A stretch of 64,000 nucleotides of DNA from Leucoraja erinacea (Eukaryota), in NCBI RefSeq assembly GCF_028641065.1, contig NC_073380.1:104408001-104472000 (forward strand), written 5' to 3'. The notes under the pieces were generated by a model. That model ran no database searches and was not told where the DNA came from. It worked only from the letters and a program-made list of their open reading frames with translations. This document shows, piece by piece, positions 9,157 to 57,877 of this stretch. Both the position numbers and the translations under genes were made by a program. Position 1 is the first letter of the stretch. Every line of letters begins with the position of its first letter.

Positions 9157-9179
9157 TGTAGGCAGTCTGAATGGTAATA

Positions 9180-10315
9180 CAGGTGCACAACCTTTTATCC
9201 GGTGTTCCGGAAACCGAAAAACTCCGAAAACCGGCCATTTTTTCCAGATGTCGTCTGCGCACCAAAGCTCGCGTTTGGCGCCAAACTTGACCCGAAACGA
9301 CCCACGGTCAACCCAGGTCTGTACTACTGTAGCGGCTGCCTCCTCCCCGGAGACCAGGAGACGCTTAAACATCTGTAAATCATTGCCTAAATGTTAGTCA
9401 GTTAGCTTGGAGGGCTTTTATGTGAAGGGGGGGTGAAGGGGTAAACTTTAATTCTTAGTCCCCTACCTGGTCGGAGAGGCGGGGAGCGGTCAATGCCTTA
9501 CCGGGTTGCCGTGCAGTAAGCTCCGCAGCGCTGTTGCCGGTGGGGCTGCGGGCGGCGCCGGTTGTAGCTCCGACCCCGGCAACTCTACCCCTGGCTGCGA
9601 GGCGCTCCAAATCCAGCGTGGCCCGCGGCCGGACTCCCCAGCTCCGCGAATGTCGGGAGTCGGCGGCGTCGCAGCGCTGGGATAGCAATGCCTTACCGGG
9701 TCGCCGTGCGGCAAGCTCCGGAGCGCTGTGGCCGCCGACTCCCAACGTTCGCGGAGCGTCGCTGGATTTGGAGCCGCGCAGCCAGGGGTAGAGTTGCCGG
9801 GGTCGGAGCTCCAACGGCGCCGCCCGCGGCCGGACGGAGCCCCCAGCTCCGCGAGGTTGGGAGTCGCCGACCAGGTAGGGGACTAAAAATTAAAGTTTCT
9901 CCCTTCACCCCCACTCCTCCACCACCACCACATAAAATCCCTCCAAACTAACTGACTAACATTTATGCAATGATTTACAATGATTCACCCGGTCTCCGGG
10001 GAGGAGGCAGCCGCTCCAGACTTTTCAAGCCGCCTGCGCTACCTACCTAATCTACGCTAAAAATCTTCCATTCGGAAATCCGAAAATATCCGAAATCCGA
10101 CAAGTGTCTGGTCCCAAGGCTTTCGGATAAAAGGTTGTGCACCTGTAATTTTTGCAAGGATATACGATCAGATTTTCCGGGCAGGAGGCAGCCGCTCCAC
10201 CCATAAATGCTCTTACCTAATCTACGCTAAAAATGTTCCATTCGGAAATCCGAAAATGTCCGAAATCCGACAAGTGTCTGGTCCCAAGGCTTTCGGATAA
10301 AAGGTTGTGCACCTG
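9180..10315. mobile_element. Tc1/mariner (pogo/Tigger-type) non-autonomous DNA transposon (MITE) with duplicated right end
   Basis: TIR CAGGTGCACAACCTTTTATCCG at 9180, with its reverse complement ending at both 10145 and 10315. TA flanks at 9178-9179, 10146-10147 and 10316-10317. Long internal inverted repeats and no transposase. Confidence 0.9.
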
Positions 10316-10427
10316 TAGTTGCATCCCTCATTGACTGTTTTTGCACAAACTGGGAATGCCCTATTTTGCATGCTTTGTACCATCTCTAGACCGAAATGAC
10401 TGCTTGTCGCATAGCTCTGTATCGTAC

Positions 10428-10641
10428 TGTGGCGGCTCCTAAGGGTTGTCCCATTATACTGCCGAACCCCTCGGCACAGGAGTGGTGCAGTCCGGAGGCG
10501 GTCCTTAGCCGGAGGGTATAAAAGGCAGGGTTTGGGTGCCATCTTCCCCTGGTTTCGTCTTCCCCTGAACCGGGAAGAAATAAAGCAAAGTGCTTCTCAA
10601 ACTGCGGACTACTTGCCTCATTTTGAGACCCACGCACTACA
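10428..10641 (+). repeat. 5' LTR
   Basis: TGTGGCGG...CACTACA with TATAAAA and AATAAA. It differs from the 3' LTR at 3 positions by my reading. Confidence 0.97.
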
Positions 10642-10642
10642 T

Positions 10643-10657
10643 TGGTGACCCCCGACG
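10643..10657 (+). promoter_or_regulatory. primer-binding site, tRNA-Trp-like
   Basis: TGGTGACCCCCGACG lies 1 nt after the LTR. The complement of the tRNA-Trp 3' end is TGGTGACCCCGACG, so this copy has one extra C. Confidence 0.85.
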
Positions 10658-10670
10658 CTCCATTGGCATC

Positions 10671-11624
10671 ATGATGGAGACCGAACATAGCCCTACCTCC
10701 TCACACGCCAGCCCGACCCTGTCTCTGGACGCGGTCTACGTGAAACTGCCCAGCTTCTGGACCACACCGCCGCTCATCTGGTTCCAGCAGGCGGAGGCCC
10801 AGTTCAACCTGCGGGGCATCACGGTCGATGCCACCCGCTTCTATTACCTGGTGGGAGCCCTCGACCAGGATGCGGTGGAAGAAGTATCGGACTTCCTCGC
10901 AGCCCCCCCGGACAATGATAAATATCTCGGCCTGAAACAGCTCCTGCTCCAAATTTACGGACTAAGTAGGATGGAGTGTGCTGGTAGGATCCTGCATATG
11001 GGGGGCCTGGGCGACCGGCGGCCATCTACCCTCCTAAAGGAAATGGTGGCGTTATTAGACGGGCACACGCCGTGCCTGTTGTTTGAGTACACTTACCTGC
11101 ATCTGCTGCCGGCCTACATTCGATTGCAACTCACCGACGCCTCGTTTGCCGACCTTCGGGCCCTCGGGAGGCGCGCCGACGCCATGTGGATGGCGCGCCC
11201 TGATGACGTCAGCGCGCTGGGCGTCAGCAGAGACGAGGTCGCGCTGAGGTCGACGCGCCCGGATGACGTCAACGCGCTGGCCGTCGGCAGGCACGCCGGT
11301 GACGTCAACGCGCTGGCCGTCGGCAGGCACGCCGATGACGTCACCCCAGCAGCTCCCGATTTCCTCCGGTGGGGCGGGGGAGCTGTGGAAGGAGTGACAG
11401 CTCCAGCCCGACGGCCAGCACGATTACCCCCAGCGGCAGTGAGGGGTACTGCACCTGCAGTCCAGCGCCAGCAAGCTGCAGGCACCACCAGCAGGGGCAG
11501 GCAAGCTCCAAATAGCACGAACACAAGGAGCTGGTGCTATTTCCATCAGCGCTGGGGTGCTGCAGCACGACAATGCCGCCAGCCATGCACATTTCCGGGA
11601 AACGCCTGGGCCGGCTGCCAATAG
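10671..11624 (+). CDS. gag: Gypsy Gag
   Basis: First ATG after the PBS. N-terminal [19 protein letters not shown] motif and C-terminal [19 protein letters not shown] Cys/His motif. Confidence 0.92.
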
Positions 11625-14600
11625 TCCCCGCGGTGGCCGGCCAAATTCACCGCCTTTTCGCTTGGGATCGGCGCTCCGGGACCCGCTTCCTCGTGGATAC
11701 AGGAGCGGAGCTCAGCGTCCTGCCCCCTTCGCTGGCCGACATTCGTTCCGGTAAGCGGGGGCCCGTCCTCACCGCAGCGAACGGCAGCCCCATCCGCACA
11801 TATGGACTGCGCATGGTTCCCATCGTGCTCGGCTCCTGCCATTTTTCATGGAACTTTACCGTTGCCGACGTCTCCCAACCATTGCTCGGGGCCGATTTTC
11901 TCCGGACGCATTCCCTCATGGTGGACGTCGGGCGTCAGCGTTTGGTCAACGCCACTACAATGGAGCCGATCACGTTGCGCTTGGGTCAACCGGTGGGACG
12001 GCCACTGGCGTTCGTGGACTCCCGATACGCACGAATCTTGGCTGCGTTCCCGGACATTCTCACTCCGCAGTTTCATTCAGCAACCCCCAGCCACGGAGTT
12101 GTACATTATATCCCGACTACCGGCCCACCCCTCCATGCACGAGCACGACGGCTGCCACCAGATAAACTGCGTCTGGCACGGCGGGAATTCCGCACGATGG
12201 AGGCCTTGGGGATCGTCCGCCCTTCGAGCAGCCCTTGGGCGTCCCCACTCCACATGGTCCCTAAGTCAAGCGGGGGCTGGCGACCTTGTGGGGATTACCG
12301 ACGGCTGAACGCTGCAACAACAGCGGATCGATACCCCGTTCCCCACATCCAGGACTTCACGGCCCATTTGGCTGGGGCCACATTTTTTTCAAAAGTGGAT
12401 CTGGTGCGGGGTTATAACCAGATCCCGGTTCACCTGGATGACGTACCCAAGACGGCTATCATCACGCCATTCGGGCTTTACGAGTTTACTCGGATGCCGT
12501 TCGGCCTCAAAAACGCTGCACAGGCCTTTCAGCGCCTCATGGACGGGGTTTGTCGTGACCTCGAATTCGTGTTCGTGTACCTGGACGACATCCTGGTGGC
12601 CAGCCGCTCGCAGCAGGAACACTGCGCTCACCTTCGACAGCTCTGTCAGCGGCTCAGCGAGCATGGTTTGGCCATCAACCTGGACAAGTGCCGTTTTGGT
12701 GTCAACGAAATTGACTTTCTCGGCCACCGCGTGACTGTGCAAGGCGCGGTTTTCCTGCCTGACAGGGTTGACGCCGTCCGTCGGTTTCCCCGCCCACGCA
12801 CGGTGCGCGGCCTGCAGGAATTTGTCGGCATGGTGGCATTCTACCATCGTTTCGTGCCATCCGCGGCCCACATCATGTGGCCACTGTATCAACCTCTTGC
12901 GGGTGGGCAGCAGAAGAGCGTTGAGTGGACCCACGAGGCGGAGGCAGCTTTCGACGGCGCGAAGGAGGCCCTTGCTCGGGCCGTGCTGCTGGTGCACCCG
13001 CGGGAAGATGCCCCGACTGCTCTCACTGTGGATGCCTCGGAGTCGGCAGTTGGTGCTGTACTGGAGCAGCTGACGGGCGGAGTTTGGCGGCCTCTGGCCT
13101 TCTTCAGTCGGCACCTCAACCGCGCGCAGACCAAGTACAGTGCGTTCGATCGTGAGCTCCTGGCTCTGTACCTGGCTGTGCGCCATTTTCGTTACTTCCT
13201 GGAGGGCCGCCCGTTCACCGCCTACACCGACCATAAGCCGCTCACTTTCGCCCTGCAGAAGGTTTCCGACCCCTGGTCCGCACGTCAGCAGCGGCAGTTG
13301 GCTTACATCTCCGAGTACACCACAGCCATCCGCTACGTCAAGGGGAAAGAGAACCGGGTGGCCGACGCATTGTCCCGCCGTGCTATAAATGCCGTGTTCG
13401 AGGTGGCGCCCGGATTGGACTATTCTGCTCTGGCGGCGGCACAGCTCATGGACGACGAGGTGCCCACCTACCGGACTGCCATCTCCGGACTCCGTCTTGA
13501 GGATGTCCCTCTCAGTCCTGGGGGTATGACAATCCTGTGCGATGTGTCGTCCGGTCAGCCGCGCCCCATCGTCCCTGCCACCTGGCGCCGGAGAGTGTTC
13601 GAGGTCATCCACGGACTGGCTCACCCATCAATCCGGGCGACAACGGCACTTGTGGCAGCTCGCTTCATGTGGCACGGTCTGCGCAAGCAAGTTGCCCATT
13701 GGGCTCGCACCTGCATCCCATGCCAGACAGCAAAGATCCAGCGCCATGTCCGCGCACCTCTCCAGGAGTTCGGTCTACCTCACCGGCAGTTCGACCATCT
13801 CCACGTGGACATTGTGGGGCCCCTTCCACCGTCCCGGGGCATCACCCACCTTTTGACCATGGTGGACCGCTTCACGCGGTGGCCGGAGGCCATTCCGTTG
13901 GCTGACACCTCATCGGCTACGTGTGCTCGTGCGTTGTCCGCGCACTGGATTGCTCGCTTCGGGGTGCCGGCGCACATCTCCTCCGACCGGGGGCCACAGT
14001 TCACCTCCGAGCTGTGGTCAGCCATGGCTCGCTTGCTGGGGGTGCAGCTGCACCACACCACGGCTTACCACCCGCAGGCTAACGGTCTGGTGGAGAGGTT
14101 CCACCGGCAGCTGAAGGCGGCATTGAAGGCACGACGCACCGGCCCGGACTGGATGGACGAGTTGCCGTGGGTCATGCTGGGCATCCGGACCGCTCCCAAA
14201 GAGGACTTGGCCTCATCATCGGCGGAGCTGGTGTACGGGTCGACACTCACAGTGCCCGGGGAGTTTGTGCCGTCGGCGCCGGAGCAGCAGGAAACGCCCT
14301 CCTCCACCCTTCAACGCCTTCGCGAGCGAGTTGGCAGGCTCGCACCCGTCCCGACATCCCGCCATGGGACATTTCGCCCACACGTGCCAATGGCCCTCAC
14401 GGACTGCCCATACGTCTTCCTGCGCCGCGATGCCCGCCGGACGCCACTCCAGAGGCCGTACGAGGGCCCGTTCCGGGTGCTGGAACACGGGCAGTCGACT
14501 TTTGTCCTGGACATGGGGGGCCGGCCGGAGGCCGTGTCGATTGACCGTTTGAAGCCGGCGCACCTGGACATTGACCAGCCGGTGCTGGTTGCTCAACCTC

Positions 14601-14803
14601 GGACCCGAGGGCGTCCCCCCTCACGACTCCCTCCACCTGTCACTCCACCTGTCCTCCCGCCGGCCCCTCGACCTGTCCCTCCACCTACTCCCCCGCAAGC
14701 CCCGGGATCTGCTGACTTCCGCACGCGGGCCGGCCGGGCCGTGCACCCGCCGGTGCGTTTTGTGCCTCTGGTTCTGGGGGGGGGGTCCTGTGGCGGCTCC
14801 TAA
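11597..14803 (+). CDS. pol: Gypsy Pol (protease, RT, RNase H, integrase), reached by predicted -1 frameshift
   Basis: Uninterrupted ORF with [55 protein letters not shown] and EGPF. A proline-rich tail ends at a stop inside the 3' LTR. Confidence 0.96.
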
Positions 14804-15002
14804 GGTTCGTCCCATTATACTGCCGAACCCCTCGGCACAGGAGTGGTGCAGTCCGGAGGCGGTCCTTAGCCGGAGGGTATAAAAGGCAGGGTTTGGGTGC
14901 CATCTTCCCCTGGTTTCGTCTTCCCCTGAACCGGGAAGAAATAAAGCAAAGTGCTTCTCAAACTGCGGACTACTTGCCTCATTTTGAGACCCACTCACTA
15001 CA
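14789..15002 (+). repeat. 3' LTR
   Basis: Near-identical to 10428-10641 and preceded by a G10 PPT at 14776-14785. Confidence 0.97.
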
Positions 15003-15795
15003 GTACCCTTAATCGGTAAACACGGTATGCAGCTTGCAGAGTGACTAGAGCCGCCTTTTGCATCAATACATGCTTTCTTGTAATGCACATTCTTATGAAT
15101 GACTTAATACAGCGTGCTGCCTTGGTTTTCTCTACCAATACTCTGGCTTTGATCCCGCGGTATAAAGCCTGAATACACACCACTGCTTCTCTCAAAGTCT
15201 TATACTGTCTCACCTGGACATCTCTTGCATCATAATATGCACATTCTTAAAGCCTGAATACAGCGTGCACCATGGCTTTCTCTCAAAGTATTAGCCTGAA
15301 TACACACCACTGCTTCTCTCAAAGTCTTATACTGTCTCACCTGGACATCTCTTATCTGGCATGCTCTGTATCGTTGCTGTACCGCAATGGCAGACCATCG
15401 TAGTTTCTTAAAATACTGACGCTGTTTATACATCTGATAATAAGTCTGTATGACCTTGACAGATTTGTGCATGCCCCACAGTTGCCTTCGAACAAGCATT
15501 CCACGGTAGGTTGCCTGAAGCAGTACAACGCTCTGCGTACCTTAATGTAAGTTTTGCGATCACTTTCCATTTGAAGGTGTGCCCTATAATGGGTTTGTGC
15601 TATTATAGCTGCCAATGTCATTGTCTTGTATTGACGCTATACTCTGTGCCTTCTAAATGCTGCTTGTATTACCGTTGCTGCCTTCTGTTTGTTCTGGATT
15701 TCTCTCCGTACCTTCATACCCATGAATGCAGCTTGAATATCTAGGGTTACCCTTTGGATGGCAATTTCTCTTTTCCTTTGACTTCTGCCACTTTG

Positions 15796-15942
15796 CATTT
15801 GCCCTTTGTCCCTTAACACTTGACCTGTGTCATTTTGCACTTGACTTGTGTCCCTTTGCACTTGACCTTTGTCCTTTTGCACTTGACCTTTGTCCTTTTG
15901 CACTTGACCTTTGTCATTTTGCACTTGACCTTGGTCCTTTGA
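15796..15942. repeat. 7 x 21-bp tandem repeat (CACTTGACCTTTGTCCTTTTG)
   Basis: Units start at 15796, 15817, 15838, 15859, 15880, 15901 and 15922. The minus strand encodes (QKDKGQV)n in the IQ frame or (TKVKCKR)n in the Gag frame. Confidence 0.95.
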
Positions 15943-16250
15943 GGGACTCTCACTGCCCTCTTTAGTTCAGGCTCCTTGCCTCTGGGTACGCTTGGAGGTT
16001 TTGGCGAGAAATGAGCCATTAAAGCCTCCTTACACTCCTCATACATTTTATCCGTGGGCACTGCTGGCAACAGCAACATACGTAAGGTGTGATAACCCTC
16101 TCTTCCTAAGCCTAATATGAACCATGCTCTCTTCTTCTCCTCTGCAGCAATATCATTGGAAATGAAACAAGCCTCCAAGACCTTGGTCCATTTCTCAAAA
16201 TTACACCCAGAATCTAACTGGGGCACGTTTCCTACAATTTGAAAAGCCAT
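15943..16250 (-). pseudogene. gag: Gypsy-type Gag N-terminal domain of a second, older LTR element
   Basis: MAFQIVGNVPQLD...WTKVLEACFISNDIAAEEKKRAWFILGLGREGYHTLRMLLLPAVPTDKMYEECKEALMAHFSPKP follows the pattern W..LE.YF.ANDI..EKKRA.LL..G...Y..LR.L..P..P..K.Y.E....L..H..PKP of vertebrate Gypsy Gags. Confidence 0.85.
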
Positions 16251-17562
16251 GCTACCTGTTGCTATTCAGGTGCACTATCTTCTGTTCTCTCACTGTGTAT
16301 TCTGCACTAGACTTAATCCTTCTACACACTAAGAAGTGATCCAGCCCACTGACTATTACTAATTCTTATAATAATAGATTTATACTATTAACCAACATTT
16401 CATGTTAATAGACATTTAGAACATTTTAACCATATTCCTGCTATGCACACAGATTTACTATTAATAACAGTGACCAATGTATTACATCCAATAAGTCCCG
16501 CTTTTACTGTGAAGGAATAGCGAATAACGCATTACATTCTACAGTCCTGCTTTTACTTTGAAGAATTTCACCGGTTCAGTTTGTCGGCCTATGGACTCCG
16601 GTGCCTTCTCGAGCTGTCCCCACCGGTACGTTTGCTGCTGGCCTCGCCAGACCTCCACTTTTGCTGATTTTGCTGGCTCCTCCGGGCTTCACCGTTACTT
16701 TTGCTGCCGCTGGCATGCTGCCAAGTCGACTACTGCTGCTCTGCTGACTTGCCTGCCCGCTGGCTCCACAGCCCTCACGACCAGGCTGACTCTACTCCCG
16801 ACCGGGCTGAAGTGCTTGAGTGCTGTCCTGCTTCTCTCGTGCGGACCCACTCTTTGCTCGGGGCTGGACTACCTCTCACGTCCGGGCTTTCCCCCTCCGC
16901 CAGTCCACTTCTCTTGTGCAGCCGGACCCTATTTTCTGCTCACGGTCGGGCTGACTCTACTCCTGACCGGGCTTTCTTTCACGACCGGTCCGCTTCTCTC
17001 GCGGCCAGTTTTCTTTTACTCTGCCAGTCCGCTTCTCACGCGTGGCCGGGCTTTTTTTCCGCGCTGCTGGTCCGCTACTCACGTGGCCAGCTTTCTCCCT
17101 CGACCAGGTTGACTCTTCTCCCAGCCGGGCTGACTCCGTTTCGTCGGTGGCTTCACTGGACCTGTCCGTGACCTACCCGGTACTAGGCCCTCACTTGACG
17201 TCGTTGGCGGCTCCTGGGCCTGGCTGTGGGCTACACAGCCCTGGAAAACGTCCGAAGTCAGTGGCAGCTGCTGGGCCTCTTCTGCCCCTTTTGCCTTGGC
17301 TGCACAGCCCTGGAAAATGTTCCAGGTAAGTTGACACCATCGCTGTCCTGCTGATGAGGCTTCCAGCTTTCGGCTGTTTTCTTTGGTGACACTTACTTAC
17401 TGCCCCACTTGTTTTCCTTGCTTCCTGTTCCGACCTTTCTTTTCTTTGGCGCCAATTCAAAACCATTTGGCTCCAAATCTTTTGGCTTGGTGCCATTCCA
17501 CTTTGTTTCCCAACACAACCTGCCTTCTTTCCTTTTCTGTTCTTTTATCCTCTTCGTGCTGT

Positions 17563-17824
17563 TGTAGTGTTTTGGTATAACAATTCACCTAAAACTTATA
17601 CAAAGACTATTCAGCTTGAGGAATTTGACAAAAGGAAAACTCAGTCTAAAATGAGTAACAATCCGAAGGACGCCATCTTGCCACGTAGACACAACATAGA
17701 GATAGCCTGACAAAACTCGCCGACTTGTACAGCTGATGTTTTAAATGCAGTCCCCGGCATAGAGGGATCTGCAGGCCTCTCTTGTCCAGCTCGCAAACAA
17801 CTGCGACACAACTCCGTATCTACA
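17563..17824 (-). repeat. candidate 5' LTR of the Gag-ASPM chimeric element
   Basis: The segment has TGTAG...CTACA inverted termini and is followed on the minus strand by CACGAAGAGGAT, resembling the tRNA-Ser PBS TGGCGACGAGGAT. No partner LTR was found in the window. Confidence 0.55.
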
Positions 17825-18064
17825 GTTTAAACTGTTAAACAATCCCACGTGTTGCAAAACAGTCCTGTGGGTGAGTTGACAAACTCTATCCCATCCTTGT
17901 CACCAATTGTAGTGTATTTTGGGTACTGGAACTGACTCAAAAGAACTCTCAGATACAAGAGTAAACTAACTAGCTTCTTTATTGTAGGACACCACCATGA
18001 GTCTCTCCCAGCGCATGTCCCCTCGCACAAGACATAACATATGCTAATTACATTATATCCATTG

Positions 18065-18172
18065 CATCACCCATTCCTTCTCTCCAGAGATGCTGCCTGT
18101 CCCGTTGAGTTATTCCAGCATTTTGTGTCTACCTTTGATTTAAGCCAGCATCTGCAGTTCTTTCCTACACAT
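18065..18172 (+). mobile_element. Penelope pLTR fragment
   Basis: CATCACCCATTCCTTCTCTCCAGAGATGCTGCC...CCAGCATTTTGTGTCTACC...GCATCTGCAGTTC. Confidence 0.8.
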
Positions 18173-57649: not shown

Positions 57650-57877
57650 NNNNNNNNNNNNNNNNNNNNNNNNNNNNNNNNNNNNNNNNNNNNNNNNNNN
57701 NNNNNNNNNNNNNNNNNNNNNNNNNNNNNNNNNNNNNNNNNNNNNNNNNNNNNNNNNNNNNNNNNNNNNNNNNNNNNNNNNNNNNNNNNNNNNNNNNNNN
57801 NNNNNNNNNNNNNNNNNNNNNNNNNNNNNNNNNNNNNNNNNNNNNNNNNNNNNNNNNNNNNNNNNNNNNNNNNNNNN
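57650..57877. other. assembly gap (228 N)
   Basis: Run of N. Confidence 1.

Follow-up and report, generated by a model that had tools for sequence, protein, structure and literature searches.

Acutely transforming gag-onc retroviruses are defective, helper-dependent elements in which the N-terminus of Gag is fused in frame to host coding sequence. In the events of long terminal repeat (LTR)-mediated retroposition, as set out in the relevant sections of Tan et al. 2016 (PMC5131818), part of the internal open reading frames (ORFs) of an element gives way to host mRNA, with microsimilarity at the switches, several parental genes can contribute to one element, and further non-autonomous rounds and sense transcription are seen; the retrocopies concerned are young, and among 21 older ones the frame is lost in 14. 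The maize element Bs1, cited there, likewise holds pieces of several unlinked cellular genes in an LTR element, albeit in a plant. Among vertebrate LTR retroelements, CrocERV29 (KIT-ligand) and CrocERV31 (nectin3) amplified captured host mRNA, the ORF of which is under purifying selection, according to the part of PMC4299795 devoted to them, which also mentions the gag-onc class. Here we describe a system of related kind from a 64,000-nucleotide stretch of the skate Leucoraja erinacea (NC_073380.1, 104,408,001 to 104,472,000; hereafter the window), namely a non-autonomous Ty3/Gypsy LTR retrotransposon family in which half of a Gag capsid is joined to IQ motifs of ASPM and then to a piece of TLK2. 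We establish its anatomy, both of its host sources, its parent family, the microhomology at its junctions and the selection that acted on its frame during replication.

Relative to the cases in those sections of PMC5131818, this two-gene Gag fusion has persisted through at least four successive groups under purifying selection, in dozens to hundreds of copies. The CrocERVs, as portrayed in the same part of PMC4299795, are retroviruses with 6-9 copies and one captured gene, which lies between pol and env or takes the place of env, whereas the skate family, a Ty3/Gypsy element, joins two genes to half a capsid. It resembles the gag-onc retroviruses in the in-frame fusion of a Gag N-terminus to host sequence; unlike them it has no env and no kinase domain, is long-lived in the germ line and gives no evidence of transformation. 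As its parent is a Gypsy element and not orthoretroviral, we rejected an assignment to that class. Gene capture by LTR elements is known; the literature searched yielded neither a two-gene Gag fusion that stayed under selection over several bursts nor a report of this element, which may already bear a name in Repbase or Dfam.

Family copies are about 4.2 kb long and are bounded by 162-bp TG...CA LTRs, with a primer binding site (PBS), TGGCGACGAGGATGGGAT, after the 5' LTR in most sister copies and a polypurine tract (PPT), AAG(T/C)TAAAGGGGGAGCAG, preceding the 3' LTR in most copies. Searches with the Gag-repeat-IQ junction, the Gag piece and the LTR returned 268, 448 and 393 first-look candidates, of which 40, 150 and 40 were scored. 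The loci examined comprised 39 other junction loci, 33 chosen Gag matches, 5 top loci of another search and 16 further ones, and host cargo is present in about 70 of them. The Gag-IQ junction proved to be multi-copy, being found at all 40 loci scored for it. Exact 5-bp target site duplications (TSDs) flank 16 of 33 copies with two LTRs from subfamily A (22 within one mismatch), a set from which row L060 was dropped as an artefact and in which some LTR ends are mis-snapped; the median LTR-LTR identity within copies is about 96%. A multi-copy junction with paired LTRs and TSDs bears out the claim of an earlier note on this DNA that the locus belongs to a non-autonomous LTR family with a Gag-ASPM fusion, and led us to reject a lone LTR fragment inserted into an ASPM pseudogene. 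In five copies (L036, L043, L056, L058 and L062) PPT-side sequence lies upstream of the 5' LTR, suggesting tandem copies that share an LTR.

The ASPM cargo spans about 345 codons (~1,040 nt) of the host large exon with 10 IQ-like motifs. It is 83-86% identical in nucleotides to the host exon in subfamilies A and B and 87-93% identical in older copies, confirming the proposed ASPM origin of the IQ part. The Pfam IQ model is matched above its cut-off in 3 of 4 IQ-region frames tested from the window, and the IQ motifs of copy L104 give an E value of 2e-21. The IQ rod is basic, with 23% K+R and 3% D+E. Host ASPM itself is marked by the single ASH-domain match of the genome, which lies with collinear ASPM exons on another contig, C10, so that the true ASPM locus was rejected as an identity for the window; an ASPM gene or syntenic paralogue was rejected too, as ASPM proteins match only the IQ pieces within the window. 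Among the internal repeats of ASPM the block at +45966 is the best candidate donor in 5 of 5 copies, by only 0.5-1.6 points, and is the only one that continues collinearly to +46990. As the piece falls within one large exon, it is uninformative on an origin from spliced mRNA. The 21-bp repeat between Gag and the IQ array goes back to the seven ASPM codons that encode ARSQMQM at the beginning of the captured piece; it numbers 2 units in the old copies L122 and L129, and motif matches range from 4 to 21 in A and from 5 to 20 in B. The host exon has features of its own: four internal repeats of ~657 nt with 92-94% identity (C10 56974029-56976460, L075) are a recent tandem expansion of IQ motifs, and near C10 ~56973880 (L075) it is split at a short duplicated stretch into two open frames of 898 and 1096 aa, either by an assembly error or by a real frameshift allele.

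A second captured gene, missed by the earlier note since its spliced exons are absent from the window copy, occupies the 3' part of the family frame, which matches skate TLK2 with 58% identity over 163 residues. Five TLK2 exons that extend over 7.5 kb at the host locus (contig C27) are contiguous in the element, indicating capture from spliced mRNA. These host exons have 90-100% protein identity to skate TLK2 (P0015); TLK1 was rejected as donor, with 73-81% as against 79-100% for the TLK2 exons. The captured piece begins at residue 193, so that the first coiled coil is probably incomplete.

The parent of the Gag piece was recognized in loci (L113-L118) that have the LTR, leader or Gag start in common with the family and continue into a full Gag and protease; the parent copies share with the chimeras the leader, the Gag start and the 3' end, and two of them (L114 and L115) encode RVT_1, RT_RNaseH and Integrase_H2C2, in that order. 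The predicted structure of the parent Gag is a two-domain capsid (predicted local distance difference test score 96.5). In this model residues 5-88 match the Arc N-lobe and the Ty3 capsid N-terminal domain (NTD; Z 6.4), residues 85-170 align to capsid C-terminal domains (CTDs), and residues 85-165 match the CTD of MLV capsid with Z 10.9 and a root mean square deviation of 1.8 over 78 aligned residues. A search of PDB by sequence yielded nothing under E 0.02, and Foldseek gave no match at E<=0.001, its top rows all being capsids. The chimera retains exactly residues 1-85 of the parent Gag, a cut at the NTD-CTD linker, and is devoid of the parent's CTD and zinc knuckles. Among the 97 of 11255 candidates that were scored, the close relatives with pol are broken. 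The LTR of subfamily B is 77% identical to that of A and 95% identical over 110 nt to that of the pol-bearing L141, and L125 (C1:30213400-30220400) is a parent/chimera recombinant in which full Gag and the start of protease run into the tail of ASPM and the exons of TLK2. The LTR match and the recombinant fit an exchange with helpers inside particles, that is, co-packaging.

The fusion junctions are in frame, and each switch point shows microhomology, judged by eye and without a chance model: CCARCAG at Gag/ASPM, TGTG at ASPM/TLK2, where it coincides with a Cys codon in each gene, and a GAT-ACACA-like stretch between TLK2 and the parent 3' end. Two old copies (L122 and L086) keep knuckle-region Gag sequence before ASPM, with the CCARCAG switch point visible. 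A tree of the ASPM piece, built from copies with more than 600 aligned bases and with the host as root, has the shape of a ladder, with old copies at the base, intermediates above them and the two star-like bursts A and B at the top. We propose that reverse transcriptase switched template from the parent Gag, just after the zinc knuckles, to ASPM mRNA, and from there to TLK2 mRNA and on to the parent 3' end. The capsid CTD is absent already from the oldest copies seen; knuckle loss and expansion of the 21-bp unit would have come later than its loss.

Selection was assessed in 46 A and 13 B copies; L121 was excluded because it nearly duplicates L119. In each column the most frequent codon served as the reference for classing variants, and the expected counts took the type of every base change into account. 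Among changes fixed since the oldest copies, with three segments pooled, 37 of 103 are synonymous against 26.1 expected (p=0.006), and no stop is fixed against 7.1 expected (P=0.0008). Variants in at least 4 copies behave alike (32/69 synonymous, 19.1 expected, p=0.0002). Those in 2-3 copies show no significant excess (68/233 against 62.4), with 5 stops against 18.1. Private variants are neutral, with 236 of 1009 synonymous (240.8 expected) and 63 stops (66.6 expected). Removal of CpG columns leaves the pattern in place (p=0.019; 0 stops against 6.8). TLK2 exons 1-2 are the clearest segment, with 14 fixed synonymous changes against 8.0 (p=0.01, omega ~0.4) and 7 synonymous shared variants against 3.3, and the Gag variants found in at least 4 copies are synonymous in 11 of 13 cases against 4.0 expected. 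No frameshift is fixed in ASPM or TLK2 exons 1-2, where 93 private frameshifting indels occur. Shared indels in these segments are multiples of three, save one +1 call at the repeat junction, which we regard as an alignment artefact since 14 A copies read through it. In-frame structural changes include a 72-nt duplication in 45 of 50 copies measured, duplications of 126, 129 or 132 nt in 9 of 12 subfamily-B copies, and deletions of 12 and 3 nt. Gag and the IQ array are continuous in a single natural frame in 14/46 A, 4/14 B and 4/4 older copies, which agrees with the fusion into one ORF predicted by the earlier note, and ASPM runs into TLK2 in one frame in 33/46 A, 6/14 B and, by a strict pattern, 0/4 older copies. 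Together these observations place selection during replication and not after insertion, so that the benefit went to the element, and a frame kept free of stops during spread suggests that the hybrid protein helped the element's own copying.

A run index listed no RNA run; DNA-type or unlabelled runs under four organism labels contain 34-40% of the words searched. At the RNA level, three raw runs under two organism labels gave 647, 1230 and 1288 reads on copy L045, matched at 90% likeness without a silent control stretch, and covered all 30 bins. Under the usual library conventions, reads in the sense of the element outnumber those of the opposite strand by 5.9, 7.1 and 7.5 to 1. Reads span the PPT into the LTR. 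They are not assignable to one locus, and short reads from host TLK2 exons may contribute to them.

In light of these results we consider it somewhat more probable than the sum of its rivals (about 0.55) that the fusion of Gag NTD, ASPM IQ array and TLK2 coiled coil aided packaging of the element's own RNA by a pol-encoding relative. We infer every mechanistic step of this model. Through the capsid NTD that it retains, the fusion would enter the helper particle by co-assembly, the basic IQ rod may replace the lost nucleocapsid as an RNA grip or else bind calmodulin, and the TLK2 coiled coil could stand in for the lost dimerising CTD. A predicted complex of two TLK2-derived fragments scored 0.12, which we count neither for nor against this. 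In the portions of PMC6023931 that treat the coiled coils, TLK2 dimerisation needs CC1, which also mediates TLK1-TLK2 association; for fly Asp, the corresponding portion of PMC4674283 reports that the IQ-rich C-terminal half binds calmodulin and weakly decorates spindles. A bolder version, in which a vertebrate Gypsy element rebuilt its Gag from host parts, retaining the capsid NTD but exchanging CTD and nucleocapsid for a calmodulin-binding rod from ASPM and the dimerisation coil of TLK2, and so hijacked helper capsids and reached the spindle or TLK-bound germ-line chromatin, we regard as tentative and rather doubtful. Several results weigh against the packaging model. ASPM alone is weakly constrained (20 fixed synonymous changes against 15.2, p=0.10, omega ~0.7), conservation at its IQ core does not significantly exceed that of the other positions (4/28 changed against 78/294, p=0.18), and the fixed changes in Gag look neutral (3 synonymous of 11, 3.0 expected). 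TLK2 exons 3-5 are unconstrained, with fixed frameshifts; the frame is free beyond residue ~281, and a stop located 18 residues past HGASFTEQW is common to 18 subfamily-A copies. Not one of 66 copies is unbroken from the ATG to TLK2 exon 2, the longest stretch being 559 aa. Of ten pol-bearing copies compared, none had an A-type LTR, the best reaching 82%. The IQ array has the lowest RNA depth, no fusion protein was detected, and no chimeric protein is among 18 database matches.

Some of the same facts would be expected if the frame stayed open for the sake of the RNA only, by escape from nonsense-mediated decay or translation-coupled packaging, with the amino acids of the cargo hardly mattering. 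Our strongest signal is that stops and frameshifts are lacking, the ASPM omega is not significant by itself, IQ core residues are not preferentially kept and the far C-terminus varies freely; the synonymous excess in TLK2 exons 1-2 and in the Gag variants of at least 4 copies, together with the domain-exact Gag cut, speaks against it, and we deem this alternative possible though improbable. An action on the host, with the TLK2 piece docking on TLK1/2 and calmodulin or spindles bound by the IQ array so as to steer particles to germ-line chromatin or bias division in the manner of transduced oncogenes, is suggested by the fact that both donors are cell-division genes, by the described roles of CC1 and of the Asp C-terminal half, and by TLK2 exons 1-2 being the most constrained cargo. 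Against this, the two genes may have been donors simply because their mRNAs are abundant in germ cells, and a TLK2 piece that starts at residue 193 probably has an incomplete first coiled coil; we judge such an action unlikely.

That the host pieces are neutral stuffer in an ordinary non-autonomous element, their frame left open by the small number of replication cycles, is largely refuted and has very little probability: young LTR-mediated retrocopies are indeed often in frame without selection (14/17 according to PMC5131818), but here ~100 substitutions were fixed without a stop and without a frameshift, alongside several in-frame rearrangements. Least probable of all is that one intact copy adopted by the host, for instance as a capsid-binding restriction factor, was the source and the scattered copies its by-products. 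A capsid domain with a coiled coil does resemble capsid-derived restriction factors, and the Gag candidates were scored to the extent of 150 of 448; yet the subfamilies follow one another in a ladder with star-shaped bursts, their LTRs differ, and there is no intact frame in 66 copies, nor an open frame above 564 aa among the 150 scored. The packaging model remains the explanation that we favour.

The layout of the window copy is given in Table 1. Relative to the family it lacks ~1.1 kb, comprising the ASPM tail, TLK2 exons, PPT and 3' LTR. As the earlier note had it, Gag begins at position 16250 of the minus strand, seven or so 21-bp units follow, two insertions interrupt the IQ array and no 3' LTR is visible; a 3' LTR or further element sequence beyond 9157 has no match anywhere in the window. 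Its frame break between Gag and the repeat is real and is absent from the natural copy L048; the window copy belongs to subfamily A, of which 14 of 46 copies read through this point in one frame. The proposed LTR at 17824-17563 did not hold up, for this segment occurs once per element, in the leader, and its seemingly high conservation is ordinary (2.4-2.7% divergence against 1.9-3.3% in the coding part). At its end the segment has a decayed PBS beside an older LTR-end relic; the PBS of the element adjoins the true LTR. The earlier reading is otherwise supported, and none of the three outcomes that it named as contrary (a best match of the IQ segment to a non-ASPM protein, the syntenic ASPM locus, or a single-copy junction) was found.

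Table 1. Features of the element copy in the window and of its insertions
Feature	Position	Strand	Remarks
5' LTR	17908..18066	-	Family LTR of 162 bp, TG...CA; paired in other copies
PBS	17888..17905	-	TGGTGACAAGGATGGGAT in window copy; tRNA-Ser type
Leader	16251..17887	-	Includes 17824-17563, ending in relic LTR end and decayed PBS
Gag capsid NTD, 85 codons	15996..16250	-	Alignment to parent Gag
Gag-derived linker	15942..15995	-	Frame broken near 15953 in window copy
21-bp repeat, QKDKGQV-like	15791..15941	-	7.2 copies
ASPM IQ-array segment 1	15294..15805	-	83% to host ASPM exon, host columns 4-515; Pfam IQ; overlaps last 21-bp unit; contains a stop and a frameshift
ASPM IQ-array segment 2	15003..15226	-	Host columns 456-679; follows local duplication seen in window copy
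Younger unrelated Gypsy element within IQ array	10428..15002	+	GTAC TSD; open gag and pol frames
ASPM IQ-array segment 3	10316..10427	-	Host columns 676-785; 83-97% to sister copies
TA-flanked non-coding element with terminal inverted repeats, within IQ array	9180..10315		
Last 23 nt of element in window copy	9157..9179	-	22/23 nt match copy L046

The younger Gypsy element has open frames for gag (346 aa) and pol (1095 aa), and its LTR repeats are 98% identical. The inverted-repeat element, which we take to be Tc1/mariner-like by its TA flanks, has an internal duplication and is inserted in the sister copies L061 and L066 as well. At 18067-18172 the family element appears to have landed in a common short interspersed repeat, of which no second half was found near the window copy; nor was a second TSD. 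The sole masked or gap stretch of the window is a run of 228 N at 57650-57877.

Captured host genes in LTR elements usually decay, and here a two-gene, half-capsid fusion was kept in frame through successive amplifications. Selection on it is measurable with a built-in neutral control, and a stepwise history of two captures, domain deletions, repeat growth and LTR change can be read in one genome. This makes it testable whether host coding cargo benefits a non-autonomous element at the protein level. In addition, the many ASPM- and TLK2-like copies will confound annotation and read mapping of both neurodevelopmental genes, in this skate and in its relatives.

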